Assembly (NCBI GenBank): GCA_051439425.1
Contig: JBFRWD010000138.1
Span: forward strand, 1 to 64,000
Direction: 5' to 3'
Origin: Synechococcus sp.
Lineage (GTDB): Bacteria > Cyanobacteriota > Cyanobacteriia > Thermostichales > PCC-7336
DNA: 64,000 nt
Shown: positions 5,311 through 38,882 of the stretch, one piece after another
Layout: every line of letters starts with the position of its first letter
Position numbering within the stretch: the stretch's first letter is position 1
Program-made: the position numbers and the translations under genes
The notes under the pieces: model-generated
Told to the model about the DNA's origin: nothing
Databases searched by the model: none
The model's input: the letters and a program-made list of their open reading frames with translations, nothing else

Positions 5311-6231
5311 CTAGCTAGCAGCTGCCTCAGCTCCCGAGCGAAATTGGGTCAACCCCTCCGCATTCCAGGAATACCCATCAGCAGCAACCACCGACCGGAA
5401 ATTCTCACAATTCAATTCAATCCCCAGCCATCTCCCCAACTCAGCCAGATCCTCATCGAAAATTGCTGTAAGCTTGGCCAACTGCTCGGGGGCAATTTCG
5501 GGGCGCTCGATCTTTGCCACAAATGGTTTCCGAATCAGTTTCTTCAAGCCAGATGGCAATAGGTATTTACGAATCGGAGCCGTCAGCGGCGACATGCGCA
5601 GAAAATCGCTCAGCGCCGTCCGTTGTATGCGATCCTTCGAAACATTTCTAACCTTCTGATCGCTCTTCCACTCCGGAGTGCCCACATAGCCAATGAACTC
5701 ACAAATTCGCTCTAACTCAGCCTGAGAACTGGCTGTCAGGCGCTCAAAAAATGAGGGCAAAATTTGGTTGTAGCCATACGCCTCAAAATACGGCTTTAAC
5801 TGAGCTGCATACTGGCTGGTTGCCACTAATTCAGGATGCCGATCGATCGCCTCGTTAATCTCCACCGAAATTCTGCCGCCGATCACTTCGTGCGTGTAGT
5901 GAGAAATCAAGCGATCGATGGGATGCCGCATCAAATACAGAAGTTTGGCATTCGGCAAATGCTTGCGCATTCTCTCCACCGAATGAGGATACAACTCCTT
6001 TTGTGTGTAAGTTGTTGCAGATTCTCCACACAGCTCGTTAGTTGGGACATGCTCAAAGTGATCGGTATACCACTTAATGCCACGCTCGTAGTTTTCATCT
6101 AGGCTGAAGTAAAATATCTCTTTAGGATTATTCACCATGAAAATTCCCGGCTGAGCATTCAACTGCGAACTAATGGTTGAGGTGGCTGATTTCATCGCGC
6201 CAATAAACAGAAAATCGGGATAACGCGCCAC
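5311..6231 (-). CDS. Sulfotransferase family protein
   Basis: PAPS-binding loop FIGAMKSATST, KEIFYF, RHPIDRLISHY; GTG start at 6231 preceded by AGGAG. Confidence 0.9.
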   Translation of the reverse strand: MARYPDFLFIGAMKSATSTISSQLNAQPGIFMVNNPKEIFYFSLDENYERGIKWYTDHFEHVPTNELCGESATTYTQKELYPHSVERMRKHLPNAKLLYLMRHPIDRLISHYTHEVIGGRISVEINEAIDRHPELVATSQYAAQLKPYFEAYGYNQILPSFFERLTASSQAELERICEFIGYVGTPEWKSDQKVRNVSKDRIQRTALSDFLRMSPLTAPIRKYLLPSGLKKLIRKPFVAKIERPEIAPEQLAKLTAIFDEDLAELGRWLGIELNCENFRSVVAADGYSWNAEGLTQFRSGAEAAAS

Positions 6232-6473
6232 GTTCAGTACTCCTAGAGATCGCAAGTTATGTTCTCTCGATAGCCCTCATGAAATTATGCAACCGATTAC
6301 TAAAGGCGCCATTCCACAAGTATCCAATTACACTACCAAACCTCCGTCAACCCACACAATACCAATAAGCACAGGCTACGAGAAAGCCTGAATGGCCTAA
6401 GAGAAAGGGCATGCGAGCATTACACAGTAAGAATCAGTGTGGAACAAATCACTGAATCCCTGAGCCAACAATC

Positions 6474-6755
6474 CTATGCTTTAAATCCATCAATATGAAC
6501 GCTGGTTGAAATTTTAGGGCCGTCCAGCTTGTACAACACATCGCGATCGTTGGAATTAATCTTATTGCTTTCCCACTCGGCAAGTTGTGCTTCACTCAAA
6601 ACCGTTCCAACGGGGAAAAATTCTTGGTTCAAATAGGCCTTCGATCCCCGATTAAAGTATGGGTCGTCCTTTCGCACGTAACCGCGTGCCTCGATATCAA
6701 CGGCAACAATGCGACGAGTCGCAGCCTCAATACATACGTAAATATCAGTTTCCAT
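6474..6755 (-). CDS. Hypothetical protein (93 aa)
   Basis: ATG at 6755 gives a protein-like sequence METDIYVCIEAATRR...; no family recognised. Confidence 0.5.
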   Translation of the reverse strand: METDIYVCIEAATRRIVAVDIEARGYVRKDDPYFNRGSKAYLNQEFFPVGTVLSEAQLAEWESNKINSNDRDVLYKLDGPKISTSVHIDGFKA

Positions 6756-7095
6756 AGGAATCGTTGTGCAAATGACCGGAACGAACAGAGGGTTCTCGCA
6801 AAACCGAACCAAACACGACGATCGCTGAAATGCTTGTCTGGCCTGTCTCAATCCCCTCTTCTTCCACAGTAATCCAGATTCGAGGCTTGATAAACACCTA
6901 GCTCTCGCGAGCAGCAACCGATAGAGCGGCATCTTCTTGAGACTGGCACATCAACGATGCCGTGCTTTAATCGCGATCGGAGACTAGGGATATCCTCCGG
7001 CACGCGTAGAGACATTCCATTCACTCGGAACCGGATGAATCACAGGCTACGCTTGATATCCATCACTCACTTCACTGCAATTACGAGGTCTGCAT

Positions 7096-7539
7096 ATGGC
7101 TGGACAGAAGCAGTCAGCAAAGCGTCAAACCACTAAAAGTCGCTCAAAACAAGGTGGCTCAAGCTCAGATCGCATAATGCCTGGTGAGCTACTGCTGGCG
7201 GAGAGTCCAATCCACGCTAATCCAGATCGAGCAACAATCGAGCTGGATGTGACTAACACAGGAGATCGTCCCGTACAGGTGGGCTCTCACTTTCACTTTT
7301 TCGAAGTCAACCGGGCTCTACGCTTCGATCGCCCCGCAAGCCTCGGAATGAGACTGAATATCCCTTCCGGCAATGCTATGCGCTTCGAACCCGGGCAAAC
7401 CCACACGGTAACCTTGGTAGAGCTGGGGGGAAAAGGCTTAGTACATGGATTCAATAGCTTAGTCAGCGGCACCATTCGCAGCGCTGGCTGCCGCCAACAA
7501 GCAATTGAGAACGCTCGCTCTTGGCTAGGTCGTAGTTAG
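7096..7539 (+). CDS. ureB: Urease beta subunit
   Basis: MPGE, NTGDRPVQVGSHFHFFEVN, RLNIPSGNAMRFEPG; alternative start at 7177. Confidence 0.95.
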   Translation: MAGQKQSAKRQTTKSRSKQGGSSSDRIMPGELLLAESPIHANPDRATIELDVTNTGDRPVQVGSHFHFFEVNRALRFDRPASLGMRLNIPSGNAMRFEPGQTHTVTLVELGGKGLVHGFNSLVSGTIRSAGCRQQAIENARSWLGRS

Positions 7540-7745
7540 AGGCAACACCATTCAACCCAAAAATGGCAAGTAGGGCGCTCGATACGCTTGACTCACCTCA
7601 GCGCAGGCTAAACTCGCTCGGCCACATCACATTGACTGCTACCTAAAGGCTCAAGGTCACAGAGGTGCAAGGTCACAGAACATTCTGTTGTTACCCTGAC
7701 GGCCGGCATCGCTCTGCCATCCTCCTCAACCAACCACTGAGTACC

Positions 7746-8219
7746 TTAAGGTTGCCGCTTTTGCCGACCGTCCTGAATCACACTGAGAGAACGGTTTAGG
7801 CGATCTTCCAAATCTTGCAGCATATTGTCAGCATAGCCGTCTACTTCCTCGCGCATGCGGTTTCGTTCCAACATGGCATTCTGCAGCAACTGCTGACGCT
7901 CCTGTTGGGCCTTTCCGCGGATTTCATCCGCCTGCTGTTGAGCCTGGTTGACAATACCAGTTTCGTTCAGTAGTTGTTCGCGCTTGTATTCAGCCGCCTG
8001 AACAATTTCTTCAGCGTAGCGATGCGCTTGAGCCACAATGTCATCTCGTCGTCTGACAATAGCTTCAGACTCAGCAATCACCTGCGGAAGGCTGACTTGG
8101 ATCTCATCCAATTTTTCTAGCAGACTATCTTCATCCAACAGCGTTAATCGCGTAAAAGGAATATGGATGCCAGAGAGAATGGCTTTTTCTAGCTGCTCAA
8201 ACGCCTGTCTTAAATTCAT
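7746..8219 (-). CDS. DivIVA-like coiled-coil cell division protein (Cdv3-like)
   Basis: LEKAILSGIHIPFT...LDEDSLLEKLDEI followed by AEEIV/ADEI coiled-coil repeats and GYADNML. Confidence 0.7.
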   Translation of the reverse strand: MNLRQAFEQLEKAILSGIHIPFTRLTLLDEDSLLEKLDEIQVSLPQVIAESEAIVRRRDDIVAQAHRYAEEIVQAAEYKREQLLNETGIVNQAQQQADEIRGKAQQERQQLLQNAMLERNRMREEVDGYADNMLQDLEDRLNRSLSVIQDGRQKRQP

Positions 8220-32342: not shown

Positions 32343-32844
32343 TGGAGGAAGGTCCTATTGACCGTGGGTAGCAAAGGAACGTGCAAAGGGCGGAGTTCTG
32401 CTTCAAAAAAGCTACGTGTACATAGGTAACCCAAAAATGCCTGCAAAATTACGCAAAATACTGACAAACCAAAAATTATTTTGGGCGGAACATAAAATTA
32501 AGGTAGTGGAATTGACAGAAACGTCCAGTAAGTCTTGCTGTTCTGGGGGAGGAGATCCGTGAATTCTCTTGGGCTAGAGCCTTTCCAAATGTCCGATCGC
32601 AGGGTGTTTTGCCATAACCAGCGACAGCGCTAGTGTTTCTGCGACTCTGTGGGATCTAGTGGAAGTTATCCGGTACATGCTCGGACTGACTAAGTTCACG
32701 AGCGAGGTGAATTGACGGATCGCTTCTGTATTGTTTGAGTGTTTTCAGTCACGGGCGATCGCGCTCTGCTTAACGCTTACTCTCAGCGCAGCCAAATCCC
32801 TCGGTTTCACCGAACTTCCCAAAGACTGACCTCTTGCTCGTCCA

Positions 32845-32881
32845 AAAGTCCCTCACATATCAGGATGGGGGATTTAGGGGG
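32845..32881 (-). repeat. Cyanobacterial small dispersed repeat (CCCCCTAAATCCCCC...GGGACTTT type)
   Basis: Minus strand reads CCCCCTAAATCCCCCAtcctgatatgtGAGGGACTTT; overlaps the ATPase stop codon. Confidence 0.5.
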
Positions 32882-35231
32882 CCACCTCCCGAGCAAACCA
32901 CCGCCGAATCATCTCCACCTGAAACTGATATCCATCCCCATTCGGCTCAATCAATTCCCGCTGCTGTAACTGAGAAATAGCCACCGGAAGCTCGTCCCCA
33001 AATTGCCGATCTAACTCTTCTCGGCTAACCCCAATCCCTTCACCAGCAGCAGCAATTGCCCGCAACACGGCCAAGCCAGTGGTATCCACTTGGTTGTTCT
33101 GAATATCTGCAAAAAAGAAGCTGCCGCTGTCAATTGCCGGGTCGATAACGGCTTCTACATCCACCCGCAGGGCGAGGCGGCGGATGGAGGGATCTTGTTC
33201 GTTTTTGTGGGCGACGAGTTCGGCGCAGAGCAGTTGGACTAGGTAGGGCTGGCAGCGAGTTAAGTCTAGGATGCGTTGGACAGCGTCGGGTTCGTAGCGG
33301 AGGGCAAAGTCGGGGGTGGGGGATTCGATTAGTTTGCGGGCTTCGGATTCTTTGAGGTAGCCGAGATGGATGACTTGAACATTGATGAGATAGCTGGCCC
33401 AGCGGTGGAATTCTTGCAGGGTATGGGAGCCGGCAATCATCACTTTGATGCGGGGGCGGTGTTGGATGATGTTGCGCAGAGTGCCGAGGATGTCTTGTTC
33501 GTTGAAGCGATCGGCGACTAGGGCTGCGTCTAGGGCTTCGAATTCATCCAGGGTGAGGAGTAGGGTGCCGTTGCCGACTTTGTCATTGAGTATTTGTTCA
33601 ACGTCATCCAGCCATTCGTCGAAGGTGGTGAAGGGGTCGGCGGTTAGAGCTTCGCGAGGGAGTTTGGGGAGTTGGAGATTGCGTTGCTCGAGGGCGGTGT
33701 TGGATATACCGCGAGCAAGGTTGTATAGGAAGCCGATGGCATCGCTAGCTTTTGAGGTTGGGCCTTGGAGGTCAACGGAGGTGGGGATGAAACGGGTGGG
33801 GAGGAGACGACCGAGGTTGTTGAGCAGGGAGGTTTTGCCGGTGCGCCGTTGGCCGTAGAGGAGGAGGGGAGGGCGGCGATCGTCGAGCAGGAGTTGTTCG
33901 ATGCGGGCGCAGGTGTCGGTGCGGCCCACGAAGATGTGTTGGGATTGGGTGAGGGGAACGCCGATTATGTAGGGGGTGTCGAGGTCTTGGTTTTGCTCGG
34001 CTGTTTGGGCTAGCTGGTTACAATATTGAGTGACGATGGTTTGCCACCGTTGGGCGATGGGGCGGAAGCGAGGAGCAGCTTTATTGTCAGTGCGGGTGAG
34101 TTCCACCACCAGGCTGGTAAGTTTATCGCCGATGTCTTTGAGAGCTAGGCGTTGGTTGTAGCTACTGGTTTGGGCGAGAGCGGCAGAAGTGTCTTGGCCA
34201 ATTGCTTGAAAGCGCTGCAGAATTGCTACTCCTGGGTTGTCTGAGTCAAGAGCAGTATTGGGTTCTTTTGTTTTTGATAGCGCTTGGATCGTTTGAAAAC
34301 TTTCGAGTTTACGTGCATCAAGTTCTAGTTGAACGGCTTGGGCTGCCCAACGCTGGCGACTGGTACTGAGGTAATTGAGTGCCGCTTGACCTTCCTCTGG
34401 ATGGTTCTCAAAAACCAACAGAACATGCTTATCTAATCCCGGCCATTGTAAGCGTTGCCATTCGTACCAAAAGGCTGGATGCCATCTCAAAAAATAGTAA
34501 GTTGAATCGGCATTTGCTCGCCCATCTAATATCTGCAATCCCCCTCCCCCTAAACGCAACCAAGGGTACAACGCAACAGGCAGCCAGCTATTTACTAAGA
34601 GACACACGCCGAACGCCACGCCTCCCGCCACGCCTCCCGCTACGCCTCCCACCACGCCGAACGCCACGCCGAACACCACGCATAACGCTACGCCTCCCGC
34701 CACGCCGAACGCCACACCTACCGTCACGCCTAACGCCACACCCACCGCCACACCCACCGCCACGCCTCCCGCCACGCCTCCCGCCACGCCGTAAGCCACG
34801 CCGTAAGCCACGCCGTAAGCCACGCCTACCGTCACGCCTACCATCACGCCTACCGTCACGCCTAACGCCACGCCTAACGCCACGCCGTAAGCCACGCCGT
34901 AAGCCACACCTAACGCTGCATTAGATAATGCCTCCCCTATTGGAATTCCAAACAAGACCAGGCAGAAAAAAAGCCCCAAGTTAGCCAGAATAGGTGCGAC
35001 AACAAAACCTTGTAGCAATAACTTCCATAGGTTCCGATTCTTCCATCCGGGCCATCGTCGTTGTGTACTTAGTGGAAGCTCTAGTGATGGGTCGATACGT
35101 TTGAGATGATTGCGAAAAGCAGAGGGATGGAACACCATCCAAAATAAAAGTTGTACCGTTCCCAAAATCAAATTGGGATGTTGCTCGGGAGAATCTGTAT
35201 AGGCATTACGTAACTTAGATGCCTTTGTCAT
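32874..35231 (-). CDS. Membrane-associated STAND-like P-loop ATPase with a GVxx repeat region
   Basis: N-terminal TM segments, 26 GVxx repeats, helical linker, FVGR, Walker A YGQRRTGKT, Walker B LTLDEFE, CQPYLVQ, C-terminal winged-helix-like segment. Confidence 0.88.
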   Translation of the reverse strand: MTKASKLRNAYTDSPEQHPNLILGTVQLLFWMVFHPSAFRNHLKRIDPSLELPLSTQRRWPGWKNRNLWKLLLQGFVVAPILANLGLFFCLVLFGIPIGEALSNAALGVAYGVAYGVALGVALGVTVGVMVGVTVGVAYGVAYGVAYGVAGGVAGGVAVGVAVGVALGVTVGVAFGVAGGVALCVVFGVAFGVVGGVAGGVAGGVAFGVCLLVNSWLPVALYPWLRLGGGGLQILDGRANADSTYYFLRWHPAFWYEWQRLQWPGLDKHVLLVFENHPEEGQAALNYLSTSRQRWAAQAVQLELDARKLESFQTIQALSKTKEPNTALDSDNPGVAILQRFQAIGQDTSAALAQTSSYNQRLALKDIGDKLTSLVVELTRTDNKAAPRFRPIAQRWQTIVTQYCNQLAQTAEQNQDLDTPYIIGVPLTQSQHIFVGRTDTCARIEQLLLDDRRPPLLLYGQRRTGKTSLLNNLGRLLPTRFIPTSVDLQGPTSKASDAIGFLYNLARGISNTALEQRNLQLPKLPREALTADPFTTFDEWLDDVEQILNDKVGNGTLLLTLDEFEALDAALVADRFNEQDILGTLRNIIQHRPRIKVMIAGSHTLQEFHRWASYLINVQVIHLGYLKESEARKLIESPTPDFALRYEPDAVQRILDLTRCQPYLVQLLCAELVAHKNEQDPSIRRLALRVDVEAVIDPAIDSGSFFFADIQNNQVDTTGLAVLRAIAAAGEGIGVSREELDRQFGDELPVAISQLQQRELIEPNGDGYQFQVEMIRRWFAREVAP
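34599..34910 (-). repeat. Coding tandem repeat, 26 x 12 bp (G-V-A/T-x tetrapeptide)
   Basis: Units such as GGCGTGGCTTAC, GGCGTGGCGGGA and GGCGTGACGGTA on the minus strand; 312 bp in total. Confidence 0.95.
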
Positions 35232-36310
35232 GGTGCATCAAAGATATGAATAAATGGTGTAAGCTGCTCGATTGCATCTCTTCGCCATTCGTTTCCCATT
35301 TGCCCTTCTTCAAAGCTAGCTAATCGCTCGCGGCATAAGATTTGCAGTGCCAAAGGCCAACAATTACTCACGTCCAATATCCAGCCAGTATCTCTCGTCC
35401 CAAACCTCACAGGAGAACTTGCTATCAAATCACACGCCTCTTTTTCAGTTAGTGGGCCTAAATTCGCGATGTAGCCAAAGATATTAAAAAATGGTGAGCT
35501 GTGTCCTGTTCCACAAGCCAAGTCCAACGGTTTTTCAGGTGTCGACAGCACAAACGCCAACTTCCCATTAGTCGCGCTATTGCCCAGAGAACGCAAACTC
35601 TCCCAAAACTCATCATCCAGCTCCGGACAGCGCTGCAAACCCACAGCAGTCTCATCCATCAGCACTACAGTAGGTTGCTTTAGTCCTTGGCTCACCACCT
35701 CCATAAACATCTCCAAGCTGCAGTCATCAGGTACGGTGATGTCCATCCCCTTTAACAGATGCGTCATCACCCCCAAACGACTGTGCAACCGCACATCTTG
35801 GAAATCGACATAGATCCAGGTGTACGTTTCCGGCGATGGTAACCAGTCAGATCGCTGTCCCTCCCTCAACTCTCTTCTCGGAGTCGTCGTTATCGTCCGC
35901 AAGTAATTCAACAGCGAAGTCTTCCCCGATCGCTGCTTCCCCACAATTGCCGCATTCTGCATCGGCTGTGTCTTCAACAGCCCAAACAGCCGCCGCAACT
36001 CCCTCTCCCGCCCGAAGAAATTCCTCGGGTGGCTAATCGGCGGCCCAGCAATAAACTTTGGCTGATTTTCTAACTTTGCTCCGTCACCATAAAGCGGGTC
36101 GGCAACATCTTTCCAGTCCAAGCGCAACCGACTACAAAGTTCGACAAAGTTCAGGTGGTCAACTGGCTTTCCATTCAAAAAATTCTTGACGGTCGATAGA
36201 GACAACCCAGAATCCATCGCCAACGCCTTTTGGCTGGGATAGTTACATCGCTTGAGCGCAGCCTTAGCTCGCCCAACCTCACCCTCAAGTAACCTCTGCG
36301 ATCTGCTCAC
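35228..36310 (-). CDS. XRE-type HTH fused to a STAND-like P-loop ATPase
   Basis: N-terminal SQKALAMDSGLSLSTVKNFLNGKPV (HTH); FFGRERE, Walker A GKQRSGKT, Walker B VLMDE, CWPLALQ; ATGA overlap with the downstream ATPase. Confidence 0.88.
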   Translation of the reverse strand: MSRSQRLLEGEVGRAKAALKRCNYPSQKALAMDSGLSLSTVKNFLNGKPVDHLNFVELCSRLRLDWKDVADPLYGDGAKLENQPKFIAGPPISHPRNFFGRERELRRLFGLLKTQPMQNAAIVGKQRSGKTSLLNYLRTITTTPRRELREGQRSDWLPSPETYTWIYVDFQDVRLHSRLGVMTHLLKGMDITVPDDCSLEMFMEVVSQGLKQPTVVLMDETAVGLQRCPELDDEFWESLRSLGNSATNGKLAFVLSTPEKPLDLACGTGHSSPFFNIFGYIANLGPLTEKEACDLIASSPVRFGTRDTGWILDVSNCWPLALQILCRERLASFEEGQMGNEWRRDAIEQLTPFIHIFDAP

Positions 36311-36447
36311 TCAACTACTTCCCACCCTTTGGGCACATCCTATCCGCTAAAACTCACCACGAAGTCATCCATAGAAGCCAGTTTTCTCGCCCTAGTACTC
36401 ACTTCGCTGCCTTCGAAACTCAAAAGCGTAGTAAACAAGCCAACAAC

Positions 36448-36594
36448 ATGACACCTCAAGATGAACTACGCCTTCTACTTCAACTCATCACCGCCGCCAC
36501 CGTCCTCGCAGAATCCCCTGTCGCCTGCATCGCCGGAATCCTCGCAATTCTCTACCTCCTCTGGAAATCCAACAACAATCAACGATGGTTCTAA
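36448..36594 (+). CDS. Small hydrophobic protein (48 aa), divergent from the ATPase pair
   Basis: ATG 36448 to TAA 36594: MTPQDELRLLLQLITAATVLAESPVACIAGILAILYLLWKSNNNQRWF; below the ORF-track cutoff. Confidence 0.55.
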   Translation: MTPQDELRLLLQLITAATVLAESPVACIAGILAILYLLWKSNNNQRWF

Positions 36595-36603
36595 CTCCCC
36601 ATA

Positions 36604-36637
36604 TAAAAAGCGGGAAGCCCATCACAGACTCCCCAGC
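36604..36637 (-). terminator. Probable intrinsic terminator after nrdJ
   Basis: Minus strand reads GCTGGGGAGTC-tgtgatg-GGCTTCCCGC then TTTTT (stem with G-U pairs and one bulge). Confidence 0.55.
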
Positions 36638-36662
36638 ATCACAAACTCACAATTGGAAGGGA

Positions 36663-38882
36663 TTACCGAACCGGGCAAGCCCCACCCACGCAATCCGACT
36701 CCAGATCCACCGCATCCGGGTCATCCATCAGCCGCTCGTAAAACGCCAGCCGCTCAAAATCCACCGAGAACACAGCACTCTTAGCCCGCTCCTCGTACTC
36801 CTCCTCCGTCATCGCCTGATAAGGCAACAGCGGATACACATCATCCGCACACTTGGGCAAGAACGAGATGCCGACAAAATCCTCCCAGTTGTCGTACACC
36901 CAATCCACCACCGCATCCCACTCGTCATCCGCCACCGTAATCGTCACGCTAGCGTTGTGGTCGCAGTAATGCTTCGTCGTGCACTTGTAATTCTCAAGCT
37001 GTTCGATCGCCGACACATCCGAACTCTTGCGCCGCGCCGCCGTCTTCACCGGAAACTCCAACACCCATGTATCGGATTGTTGTAGAACGCGATCGCGAGC
37101 CTCACCCGGCAAATTGCGATACCACTCCAACTTCTCCCAAATATTCGCGCCCTGAGCCTCCTCTAGCCCATCCAACACAAACGACTCGGGATAAATTGGT
37201 ACCCCCTGATCCCGCAACGTCAGCGCCAGCGCATCGGTGCGGCTCATGCGAATGCGACGCAGGTAATAGGGCGCGTAAGGCCAGTGCAAGCCGGACGCAA
37301 TGGTATTGAGCTGAGCGTACGTTCCGTTCGGCTTATTCGTAGTCACCAACAGCGGACGCAGGACTCCCAAATGCTCGGCATACTTCGTCGCTTCATCATT
37401 GGCCGTATCGTGACACCACTTGCGCAGCGCATTGGCCTCATCCGAATCCACTGCCCAACCCAACTTGTCGAACAGCTCCACCCAGCCGCAGCAATCTACC
37501 CCCAACAGGCGCTCCTGCTTCTGGGTCTTATCCCACAGCGGCAAGCTGATGTTGACGCAAGTCTGACGCAAGCCAATCCGAGTAATCAACCGCAATGAGA
37601 TGTCCAACTCCTCATAGTCCACCTCAAAGCCGCCATCTGCCGCCTCCTTGACAAACTCCGGCAACGGCAACGCCGTCAAGTTACAGAACGACCCAGCCTT
37701 CGCTCCGGCATAACCAGAACTGAGCAAAATCTCCGCACAAGGATTGGTCAGACCGGCATTGTCCACGTAATTCGACACCGGTTCATCCGGACGCCACTTC
37801 AGCGCCGCTTCCCGACGGCGAGACTTATGCCCCGCCCCATTAATAAACCCAGGCTCCCCTTCATAGCGAATCACCTGGAACAGCTCCCGCAGGAAGTCCT
37901 TCTCCGGGCGATCGTAATACACCCCCGAGTTATTCGACATCGCTCGATAGCGCTTGTCAGCCAGCTTCTCGTCCGTCCACAGCCCCCGCTTGGCACTAGC
38001 CGTTTCCGTATCGCTGGGGTCAAACAGACAAATCTCGGCACTGCGGCGCACGTTCCCCGCCACCACGCAGCTACCAATGCAGCACATGATGTCCATCGCA
38101 TCGATGGGGCGCAGTTGCGGAGCAGGCGCATTGCAGATGATGTCGGTCACCTCCAGCAGCATCTTGCGCAGTGGAGCGTAGCCACTGGCCGTACCGCCAA
38201 AGCCCTTGATGCGATCGCCGTAAGGCCGGACGTTATTGAAATCGAACTCAACCGACTGAAACTCTTTGTCTTCGCTGGCAAGCTTAAGCAGCAGACCAAG
38301 AGCATCCACCCATCCCTGACGAGAATCCCCAATCGTCACCCGCACCACCGGCCCATTCAGCTCCACACTGGTGCTTTCCTGGCGCTCATATTCCGGCTTA
38401 ATCTCCACCGGAAGCACTTCAATTTTGAAATCTTGACGGAACGTCGGAAGCTGCGACACATCGCTGCGCAACACCCGAAATCCCACACCACAGCCCAACA
38501 TCAGCAGGTGAAACGCCTCGGTAAACGATGCCAGGCGATCGACCGCCAGCGCACTGCAGTTAAAGCAAGCTTCCGGCACCGTATCCGTAATTTTGGTCCC
38601 ACCCACCCAAGCCACACGACCGGAGGCCCACGCCTTGAGGTGATTGAAGCGATCGAACATCAATTCAGCTTCCGCCTGCAGTTCATCCTCAGACTGCAAA
38701 CCACTGGCCAAACTGACGTTGTAATTAGTCACCCGAGCATTGCGCTCCCACGGAGTCTCCCGCCTTTGTTCCTCAGGCAAGTACCGCAGATAGGTGCGAG
38801 TATCGACCACAGCCCCTAGCGCCCCGTAAGGAACCGGAGTTTGACTGGCACGGTCGATCAGATCGCGAGTGATGAATTCCAT
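36663..38882 (-). CDS. nrdJ: Class II adenosylcobalamin-dependent ribonucleotide reductase (RTPR type), no intein
   Basis: RTYLR, CFNCS, LLMLGCGVGF, GNVRRSAEI, GEPGF, TNPCAEILL, FCNLT, KPNGT, C-terminal CVGGACPVR. Confidence 0.93.
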   Translation of the reverse strand: MEFITRDLIDRASQTPVPYGALGAVVDTRTYLRYLPEEQRRETPWERNARVTNYNVSLASGLQSEDELQAEAELMFDRFNHLKAWASGRVAWVGGTKITDTVPEACFNCSALAVDRLASFTEAFHLLMLGCGVGFRVLRSDVSQLPTFRQDFKIEVLPVEIKPEYERQESTSVELNGPVVRVTIGDSRQGWVDALGLLLKLASEDKEFQSVEFDFNNVRPYGDRIKGFGGTASGYAPLRKMLLEVTDIICNAPAPQLRPIDAMDIMCCIGSCVVAGNVRRSAEICLFDPSDTETASAKRGLWTDEKLADKRYRAMSNNSGVYYDRPEKDFLRELFQVIRYEGEPGFINGAGHKSRRREAALKWRPDEPVSNYVDNAGLTNPCAEILLSSGYAGAKAGSFCNLTALPLPEFVKEAADGGFEVDYEELDISLRLITRIGLRQTCVNISLPLWDKTQKQERLLGVDCCGWVELFDKLGWAVDSDEANALRKWCHDTANDEATKYAEHLGVLRPLLVTTNKPNGTYAQLNTIASGLHWPYAPYYLRRIRMSRTDALALTLRDQGVPIYPESFVLDGLEEAQGANIWEKLEWYRNLPGEARDRVLQQSDTWVLEFPVKTAARRKSSDVSAIEQLENYKCTTKHYCDHNASVTITVADDEWDAVVDWVYDNWEDFVGISFLPKCADDVYPLLPYQAMTEEEYEERAKSAVFSVDFERLAFYERLMDDPDAVDLESDCVGGACPVR

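Follow-up and report, generated by a model that had tools for sequence, protein, structure and literature searches.

What do two overlapping P-loop ATPase genes and a divergent gene for a small membrane peptide do together in a cyanobacterium? The question is raised by a three-gene cassette of Synechococcus sp. (PCC-7336 in GTDB; assembly GCA_051439425.1), located within positions 1–64,000 of contig JBFRWD010000138.1, the 64-kb stretch of DNA that was analyzed here as a whole and is called the window. P2 and P1, the two ATPase genes, lie on the minus strand, and the gene for a 48-aa membrane peptide runs divergently on the plus strand (Table 1). An earlier reading of the bare sequence (the original prediction) had described a paired STAND-like module and proposed a conflict or defense system. 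The evidence presented below favors, at about even confidence, an NLR-like two-ATPase conflict switch of the programmed cell death or abortive infection type with a transcriptional output. We infer an anti-phage or defense role for the cassette, and likewise its trigger, the direction of regulation, and the toxicity of the peptide.

The two minus-strand genes share an ATGA at 35231–35228, which is common to the stop of P1 and the start of P2 and through which P1 appears to be translationally coupled to P2. P1 carries FFGRE (residues 98–102), the Walker A motif GKQRSGKTS, the Walker B motif VVLMDE, and the lid motif CWPLALQILC; the corresponding elements of P2 are FVGR, GQRRTGKTS, LTLDEFE (followed by AGSHT), and CQPYLVQLLC. 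All are kept in alignments of 30 sequences for each protein, and the key Walker residues are invariant in both, in agreement with the overlapping pair of P-loop ATPases that the original prediction had described. A common pre-motif (SPFITGxPIT..FFGR in P1, SPYIIGVPLT..IFTGR in P2) precedes the ATPase core. A Pro-containing, GxP-like motif in the helical lid is a defining feature of STAND ATPases, and the lid motifs align when the P1 and P2 profiles, built from 30 homologues each, are compared (hhalign probability 98.5%, E = 2.5e-15, 283 columns). Both ATPase modules are of the ORC/STAND kind and paralogous to each other.

The paralogues differ at both ends. The N terminus of P1 is XRE-like helix-turn-helix (HTH) in type, as originally predicted, on the grounds of an AlphaFold2 (AF2) model (residues 11–70, pLDDT ∼90), of homologues labeled "XRE-family HTH", and of relatives that pass HTH models (representative P0243, for instance, exceeds the HTH_24 cut-off); the Pfam matches of the window protein are weak (HTH_26, E = 0.09; also weak HTH_36 and SinI). 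P1 lacks a winged helix and ends ∼34 residues past its lid motif, which bears out the predicted absence of C-terminal sensor repeats. P2 passes nSTAND1 (PF20703; 30.8 bits versus a cut-off of 27.1, residues 429–663) and AAA_22 (31 bits versus 27), and its AF2 model ends in a winged helix (helices at 737–757 and 773–783, strands at 761–764 and 767–770), with VIA alignments to ORC/Cdc6 reaching residues 771–785. The STAND class assigned to both proteins by the original prediction is therefore upheld for P2, by its nSTAND1 match and ORC/Cdc6/STAND fold, and not for P1, which stays under the cut-offs and has no winged helix. GerE, Trans_reg_C, BTAD, and TPR_MalT have no Pfam match in P1 or P2, and NCBIfam was uninformative on all of the proteins, the small ones included.

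Table 1. Features of the cassette and its immediate surroundings (positions in the window)
Feature	Position	Strand	Basis or remark
P2, 785 aa	32874–35231	−	ORF (open reading frame): conserved N terminus, transmembrane segments, (GVAx)n, conserved helical cytosolic region, ATPase, winged helix
P2 C-terminal winged helix, ∼residues 715–785	32877–33089	−	AF2 secondary structure, VIA alignments
P2 ATPase core, ∼residues 430–680	33192–33944	−	Motifs, Pfam, alignment
P2 12-bp tandem repeat, 26 copies, encoding (GVAx)n	34605–34916	−	TRF
P1, 360 aa, GTG start	35228–36310	−	ORF list: N-terminal XRE-like HTH, AAA+ ATPase, lid
HTH domain of P1, residues 1–70	36101–36310	−	AF2, weak Pfam matches, relatives above cut-off
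Divergent promoter region	36311–36447	.	Between P1 and small gene; 11-bp-phased direct repeats
Core repeat pair TGACTTCGTGGTGAGTT	36351–36367	−	Sole TGASTT-N5-TGASTT match in the 64-kb window
48-aa single-transmembrane peptide gene	36448–36594	+	ORF; divergent from P1
Terminator-like hairpin	36611–36635	−	Between convergent ends of reductase gene and 48-aa peptide gene
Ribonucleotide reductase-like gene, 739 aa	36663–38882	−	Neighbor of cassette

Ahead of its ATPase, P2 has the predicted transmembrane (TM) segments and long GVxx repeat, visible as hydrophobic windows over residues 70–223 and as the 26-copy tandem repeat; residues 98–215 comprise 35 V, 32 G, and 22 A out of 118. In ESM Atlas, P2 1–420 found unnamed cyanobacterial clusters alone (best score 0.89, under the level that counts). 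An ORF of 181 aa on the opposite strand (34379–34924, plus; PRLP/PRRK repeats) was rejected as a gene and is a shadow of the (GVAx)n tandem repeat. The membrane run invites the direction of signaling given by the original prediction, in which the HTH of P1 would sense DNA, for example foreign DNA, and activate P2, whose zipper would be a pore-forming effector. Its spacing is of the GxxxG type, and glycine zippers are typical of channel formers; Foldseek also sets P2 near plant CC-NLR resistosomes, whose N termini form membrane pores. This direction is nevertheless unlikely. Zipper length varies from 46 to 186 residues among 30 P2 homologues, a single N-terminal TM helix replaces the zipper in four homologues (loci L065, L069, L104, and L107), three more (L057, L080, and L105) have neither zipper nor TM replacement, and the AF2 confidence of the zipper is <40. 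Further evidence on the direction of signaling comes from the relatives and the promoter described below.

Structure comparison with Foldseek and VIA-align placed both proteins near PAB2304, SSO1545, ORC/Cdc6, plant CC-NLR resistosomes, Avs3, MalT, TnsC, and BrxC, with MuB also among the neighbors. PAB2304 and SSO1545 (2qen, 2fna) and ORC/Cdc6 are the best fold matches and share the AAA+ core, the lid, and, in the case of P2, the winged helix: 2qen reached E = 3.1e-7 for P2 and 5.7e-4 for P1, and Aeropyrum pernix ORC2 a Z of 13.3 (rmsd 14.5 over 213 residues). In contrast to these proteins, ATPase_2 scores are 21.5 and 17.7 bits against a cut-off of 33.2, and the P1 profile found no solved relative by sequence (best E = 0.065 among solved-structure sequences, covering the P-loop alone). 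The presence of TnsC, MuB, and ORC in this company is consistent with the pair being part, or a leftover, of mobile-element or DNA-handling machinery, as TniB/TnsC/MuB- or ORC/Cdc6-like ATPases that would work on membrane-associated DNA to choose transposition targets or to serve replication or segregation. Weak TniB matches in P1 and its relatives and DNA-binding-type domains in both proteins (the HTH of P1, the winged helix of P2) fit such a role, which we consider very improbable in view of the TniB score of the window protein (13.3 bits versus a Pfam cut-off of 22.4) and of the genomic evidence given below.

A complex model of P2 225–785 with P1 80–360 scored ipSAE 0.78, 0.62, and 0.62 in its runs, a median of 0.62, and the highest-scoring of three controls stood at 0.00; a value of 0.62 was reached by 116 of 157 solved complexes and by 2 of 215 mismatched pairs. 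The runs share no less than 77% of their contacts, and the pLDDT of the partners is at least 81. In the modeled interface the two proteins stand side by side in the AAA+ manner, and an invariant segment of P2 (701–713, SGSFFFADIQNNQ) meets an invariant segment of P1 (269–283, GHSSPFFNIFGY). The modeling thus supports a P1–P2 contact and, with it, the hetero-oligomeric pair of the original prediction, a contact that the DNA-sensing direction would use as well. One locus, L125 (G534:C142, ORF 5722–8172, minus), encodes an 816-aa fusion of HTH, coiled coil, and P1 ATPase to ∼406–781 of P2, in which the membrane part is gone and the Walker A lysine of P2 is changed (GQRRMGNTS). This fusion could be a deletion en route to decay.

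Pairing of the two genes is constant. In a scan of one genome per species, 190 stretches encode a P1 relative and 80 loci were retained; wherever 3 kb or more of sequence is available downstream, a P2 homologue follows on the same strand (65 of 65 loci), and the P2 N terminus is still visible in 8 of the remaining 15, which are truncated. The original prediction had looked to a neighborhood survey for conserved pairing, and this is what the survey returned. Among the candidates scored at E ≤0.001 there are 986 relatives of P1 and 1796 of P2, named, as foreseen, in generic terms ("ATP-binding protein", "AAA family ATPase", "HTH domain-containing", rarely "nSTAND1 domain-containing NTPase"). Between 6 and 3197 bp separate the end of P1 from the first P2 match. 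In most Nostocales this gap gathers small selfish-looking cassettes; in the window the genes overlap by ATGA instead. Gaps of at least 300 bp hold a 72-aa VapB-like gene (22 loci), accompanied by a PIN gene in 13, a 206-aa protein (11 loci) with a 112-aa antitoxin-like partner in 6, a GIY-YIG-like gene (11 loci), or an HNH-like gene (3). Toxin–antitoxin-like, GIY-YIG-like, and HNH-like inserts would suit a mobile-element part; against it, the ORF clusters of the 80 loci show no conserved neighbor that is a transposase, integrase, or replication gene, no plasmid or phage copies were found, and the exchange of TIR, CHAT, and caspase domains described below does not fit.

The cassette is accessory, not core. 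The P1 module occurs in 23 of 401 phylum-sampled cyanobacterial genomes and in 99 of 301 Nostocaceae genomes (29 of 68 genera), where 8 rows have internal stops and 8 further matches are partial. Within the genus of the window it is present in one of three other genomes, and in one congener the flanking FHA and ribonucleotide reductase (RNR) genes stand 810 bp apart with unrelated DNA between them and no cassette, an empty site. The set is accordingly not a syntenic core of all relatives, an outcome that the original prediction had named as telling against a conflict system. Identity within the genus is 91–96% for RNR versus 76% for P1 and 80% for P2, and the cassette appears to evolve faster than its flanks. 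A typical cyanobacterial cassette (L062, JBLNEP010000148.1) is filed under an Actinomycetota metagenome-assembled genome, possibly a binning error rather than a transfer.

The N terminus of the P1 module is exchanged among relatives. An exhaustive HMMER search with P1 found 1958 representatives at E ≤0.001, 238 of them at E ≤1e-30. Most of the top 150 match P1 ∼80–358 alone, and do so at their C terminus. N termini were scanned in 81 of these 150, mainly those with N-terminal extensions, in a library that carries no genomic context. They comprise CHAT (9), XRE-type HTH (9), BTAD (8), TIR (5), Pkinase (5), Trans_reg_C (4), EAD1 (3), TCAD9 (2), ParA-like (2), and one each of caspase, Mrr_cat, bDLD1, and HD-CE, and 2 of the 81 have a C-terminal GerE domain. 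When compared with PADLOC, the TIR domain matches ThsB of Thoeris (5.6e-52), CHAT and caspase match effector models, and Mrr matches too. For CHAT and TIR the exchange can be placed in genomes: CHAT-P1 is followed by P2 in three Nostocaceae genomes (L114, L126, and L131), of which at least one, L114, holds the CHAT form at a Nostocales site syntenic with the HTH form, and locus L006 holds a TIR ORF, a P1 without HTH, a VapBC-like pair, and then P2. The exchange of the HTH for TIR, caspase, and other effectors, for which the original prediction had advised a survey, is thus seen among relatives. A more distant paired variant consists of a small nSTAND1 ATPase with a C-terminal TM helix (two such partners pass nSTAND1 at 38.8 and 39.7 bits) beside a large glycine-rich membrane ATPase, and a subfamily of P1 (L113, L127, L128, L132, and L133; P0060, P0087, and P0118) carries a predicted coiled-coil insert of ∼90 residues between HTH and ATPase. 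The HTH of the window protein accordingly occupies a slot that enzymatic effectors fill in relatives, a further point against the DNA-sensing direction.

The divergent small peptide of the original prediction is also encoded as described. Its 48-aa product is identical at 47 of 48 positions to that of L033, the closest related locus, with 6 synonymous and 1 nonsynonymous codon differences; at the nucleotide level the ORF matches L033 at 139/147 positions, compared with 847/1084 in P1 and 105/137 between the genes. The small gene is under purifying selection. Homologous peptides of the 48-aa type occur at the same position in L115, L054, L072, and L101, and at 64 of the 78 anchored loci HTH-P1 is preceded by a small divergent membrane gene of another type. 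The divergent gene belongs in 32 loci to the CyanoTRADDas_TM cluster (PF20712; 2TM; two of two tested, E = 3e-13 and 1.1e-12), and in a further 32 it is of a 78-aa 1-TM type, the 48-aa type being additional; the window peptide has no Pfam match to CyanoTRADDas_TM.

Between P1 and the small gene lie direct repeats in an 11-bp phase. Relative to the P1 start, GATGACTT is found at −57 and GGTGAGTT at −46, and TGAGT copies at −112 and −91. The pattern TGASTT-N5-TGASTT matches once in the window, versus 0.03 expected, and at least one match occurs in 3 of 100 shuffles. Across loci, BTGAST direct repeats (e.g., GGTTGACTT) recur in the stretch that separates HTH-P1 from the small membrane gene. In 160-bp upstream regions from 41 dereplicated loci there are 69 sites in P1 sense versus 6 in antisense; 500 shuffles gave 12.7 ± 3.6 (at most 23), and a coding control gave 2. 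Distances from one site to the next cluster at 11 (11 times), 12 (3), 22 (4), 33–34 (4), and 44–45 bp (3). An HTH-NACHT paralogue in the same genome (G000:C43:10101–11470; locus L002 ∼1388–2757; Pfam NACHT E = 3.9e-16) has the same kind of HTH and carries the direct repeats TGTGACTTTGG TGTGACTTTGT ∼70 bp upstream of its start. Genome-wide, the repeat pattern has 3 matches versus 6 for a reversed control, which is chance level; 2 of the 3 are placed upstream of HTH-STAND genes. An exact-seed repeat finder run on intergenic DNA found nothing, the repeats being degenerate and visible by cross-locus comparison, and a scan with promoter and terminator consensus sequences returned 1 promoter-like site versus 2.5 expected, an uninformative count. 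The repeats go with the HTH form of the cassette: within 200 bp upstream, none were found in the CHAT (three of three), TIR (one), or distant (two) variants, and no divergent small TM gene was found at the CHAT locus L114 or the TIR locus L006, the loci examined. Repeats so specific, placed beside the HTH gene, show no sign of nonspecific DNA sensing and again weigh against the HTH as a DNA sensor.

Because the HTH takes the position held by effectors in relatives, and because phased repeats lie in the divergent promoter, it probably acts as the output rather than the sensor, so that the direction of the original prediction, with the HTH as sensor and the membrane domain as effector, is probably reversed. 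The conflict switch that we favor would then operate as follows. P2, a membrane-tethered nSTAND1 ATPase, would be the sensing or nucleating subunit, and P1, its paralogue, would bear the output domain at its N terminus. Upon a membrane trigger, P2 and P1 would join through their AAA+ faces into a mixed oligomer and bring the N termini of P1 together. In sister cassettes the output would be CHAT or TIR, with a P2 partner, and in relatives not placed in a genome a caspase, nuclease, or kinase. In the window form, the oligomerized HTHs would bind the 11-bp-phased direct repeats of the divergent promoter and switch on the gene of the small membrane peptide (holin-like or SLATT-like in other loci), and probably the P1–P2 operon as well.

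Much of this evidence can also be read as accessory membrane or envelope-stress signaling that involves no conflict, with P2 sensing the membrane and P1 serving as a MalT/SARP-like ATP-dependent transcription factor that tunes a small membrane protein and its own operon in the everyday physiology of filamentous cyanobacteria with large genomes. In combining an HTH with phased direct repeats and a divergent target, the cassette resembles ordinary STAND-type activators, and the 81 scanned representatives include relatives with BTAD (8), Trans_reg_C (4), and GerE (2). What renders this account doubtful, though a serious one, is the replacement of the HTH by CHAT or TIR with locus and P2 partner unchanged, along with relatives that carry caspase, Mrr nuclease, EAD1, bDLD1, and TCAD9. 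The divergent gene is often the 2TM CyanoTRADDas_TM, a family named for its link to conflict systems. The patchy distribution, pseudogenes, the empty site in a congener, and the faster evolution of the cassette relative to its flanks are likewise at odds with it.

A number of observations weigh against a conflict switch, and several of them are what an envelope-stress function would lead one to expect. In Nostocales the cassette is chromosomal and single-copy and stands stably, in synteny, beside metabolic genes; no P1 copy matched in plasmid and phage collections; and identity of 55–60% across orders is good conservation that also fits a regulatory, housekeeping-type module. In the window, the flanks are RNR, a dUTPase-like gene, an FHA gene, and SpoIID, and there is no defense island. 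BTAD and Trans_reg_C relatives have the architecture of ordinary pathway regulators. PADLOC-DB v2.0.0 gave no significant system match for P1 (best E = 0.004, PDC-S27, 41 residues) or for P2 (best E = 0.00056, PDC-S01, 25 residues round the P-loop). P1 scores 19.0 bits with nSTAND1 (PF20703), under the 27.1 cut-off, and lies under all Pfam STAND cut-offs; neither protein has a C-terminal sensor or repeat domain, with nothing past the lid in P1 or past the winged helix in P2. The AF2 models are of middling confidence (pLDDT 65.8 for P1 and 65.4 for P2) and were therefore used for fold class alone, and the complex model, which was built on self-made, unpaired alignments, may owe its pass to likeness with solved AAA+ rings. 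The BTGAST enrichment is partly circular, because the motif was chosen after these sequences had been seen, which leaves the strand bias, the 11-bp spacing, and the HTH-NACHT paralogue as the sole independent support for the repeats. Finally, the HTH-coiled-coil variants keep the HTH with 0–1 BTGAST sites in the 200 bp upstream (five loci and the fusion), and the one such locus examined, L113, has no divergent small TM gene.

Within the conflict switch, a more specific form may be entertained tentatively, well short of even confidence: the cassette would be a bacterial counterpart of paired NLRs, in which P2 acts as a repeat-diversifying membrane sensor that recruits P1 as helper, the HTH ring drives a holin-like peptide, and sister cassettes fire CHAT, TIR, or caspase. 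In this form the glycine-zipper repeat of P2 would be prone to slippage and so diversify, the mixed AAA+ ring would hold its phased DNA-binding domains like a clamp, and the HTH cassette would then carry out transcriptional abortive infection. The likeness to plant and animal paired NLRs (the NRC network, NAIP–NLRC4; ZAR1-type resistosomes) is one of working principle only. It consists in two paralogous NOD-type ATPases with a predicted contact between nucleotide-binding domains (NBDs), one of the two bearing the output. Foldseek neighbors include the NRC and ZAR1 resistosomes, at low TM-scores (0.11–0.15), and, unlike NLRs, P1 and P2 match neither NB-ARC nor NACHT in Pfam, have no leucine-rich repeats, and include one partner, P1, without a winged helix.

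Among characterized systems, Avs and bNACHT proteins are single chains with large C-terminal sensors, known from experiments. They resemble the cassette in having an N-terminal effector followed by an ORC/STAND-type ATPase and in effector swapping among relatives, and Avs3 (8dgc) aligns to P2 with a Foldseek E of 2.8e-4 and a VIA Z of 11.4 (rmsd 12.8 over 247 residues). In contrast, the cassette is a heteromeric pair without such sensors and matches no PADLOC model, in keeping with the original prediction, which knew of no functional description; P2 homologue P0144 has no match at E ≤0.001, and the ATPase modules of relatives match none. MalT- and SARP-type STAND activators oligomerize, bind promoter repeats, and drive transcription, and SARPs bind heptamers spaced by 11 bp. 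With MalT and the SARP/AfsR activators the cassette shares a DNA-binding domain joined to a predicted oligomerizing STAND ATPase, phased direct repeats, here candidate binding sites, beside a promoter, and BTAD and Trans_reg_C relatives; MalT (8bob) aligns to the P2 NBD with a Z of 11.7 (rmsd 3.2 over 151 residues; VIA). Unlike them, P1 has an N-terminal, XRE-like HTH and no BTAD, GerE, or TPR sensor, and would need a separate membrane ATPase.

Comparative genomics has already described conflict systems of the STAND and nSTAND1 kinds in which effectors are swapped (Kaur et al. 2020, 2021; PMC7159879, PMC8195603). The cassette resembles them in several respects: P2 passes nSTAND1, the hosts are filamentous cyanobacteria, the divergent gene is often CyanoTRADDas_TM, and relatives of the P1 module carry EAD1, bDLD1, TCAD9, TIR, CHAT, caspase, and kinase domains. 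It differs in always joining two paralogous ATPases, of which one is tethered to the membrane and bears a glycine-zipper repeat, in lacking a C-terminal repeat sensor, and in having, as its probable output, an HTH with phased promoter repeats. The passages of both papers covered by term searches contain no account of this pair, and six homologue accessions are absent from 12 of 13 supplement files. Kaur et al. 2021 (PMC8195603) refers, with Leipe et al. 2004 as its source, to an "MNS clade (Npun2340/2341 family)" of STAND ATPases that could be this family. Full-text literature searches returned no description of paired ATPases with a zipper and an HTH output, phased repeats, and a small membrane gene. 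What looks new is the two-part, obligate-pair form with a putative HTH output; STAND conflict systems with swapped effectors were known already.

Nothing in base composition sets the cassette apart, since its G+C shows no anomaly across the window. The original prediction had noted that HIP1 sites are missing from the cassette and taken this as a weak sign of acquisition. The gap is real (32763–37088, with 60 HIP1 sites in 64 kb) and is not significant, because a Poisson estimate for 60 sites predicts roughly one gap of 4.3 kb or more and another part of the window has a gap of 6.3 kb; HIP1 depletion was therefore rejected as a sign of acquisition. The terminator-like hairpin may serve both the reductase gene and the 48-aa peptide gene. 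In a congener (G002:C1:3217108–3220443), the reductase homologue is split into residues 1–383 and 375–739, ∼1.1 kb apart within one open frame of 1140 aa, which suggests an intein-like insertion.

Bacterial NLR-like immunity as described so far consists mainly of single chains that sense through large C-terminal domains. If the conflict switch is correct, the cassette would extend this picture to paralogous ATPases that occur as an obligate pair, with one partner in the membrane and an output exchangeable among TIR, CHAT, and HTH, and would offer a compact three-gene system in which to study the origin of hetero-oligomeric NOD assemblies. It would also make testable the coupling of a membrane event to a cytosolic effector and the idea that transcribing a small membrane peptide may act as an immune output. 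For the family, names and a working model would become available for ∼1000 or more proteins labeled "ATP-binding protein" or "AAA family ATPase", from a cassette that is present in about a third of the sampled Nostocaceae.

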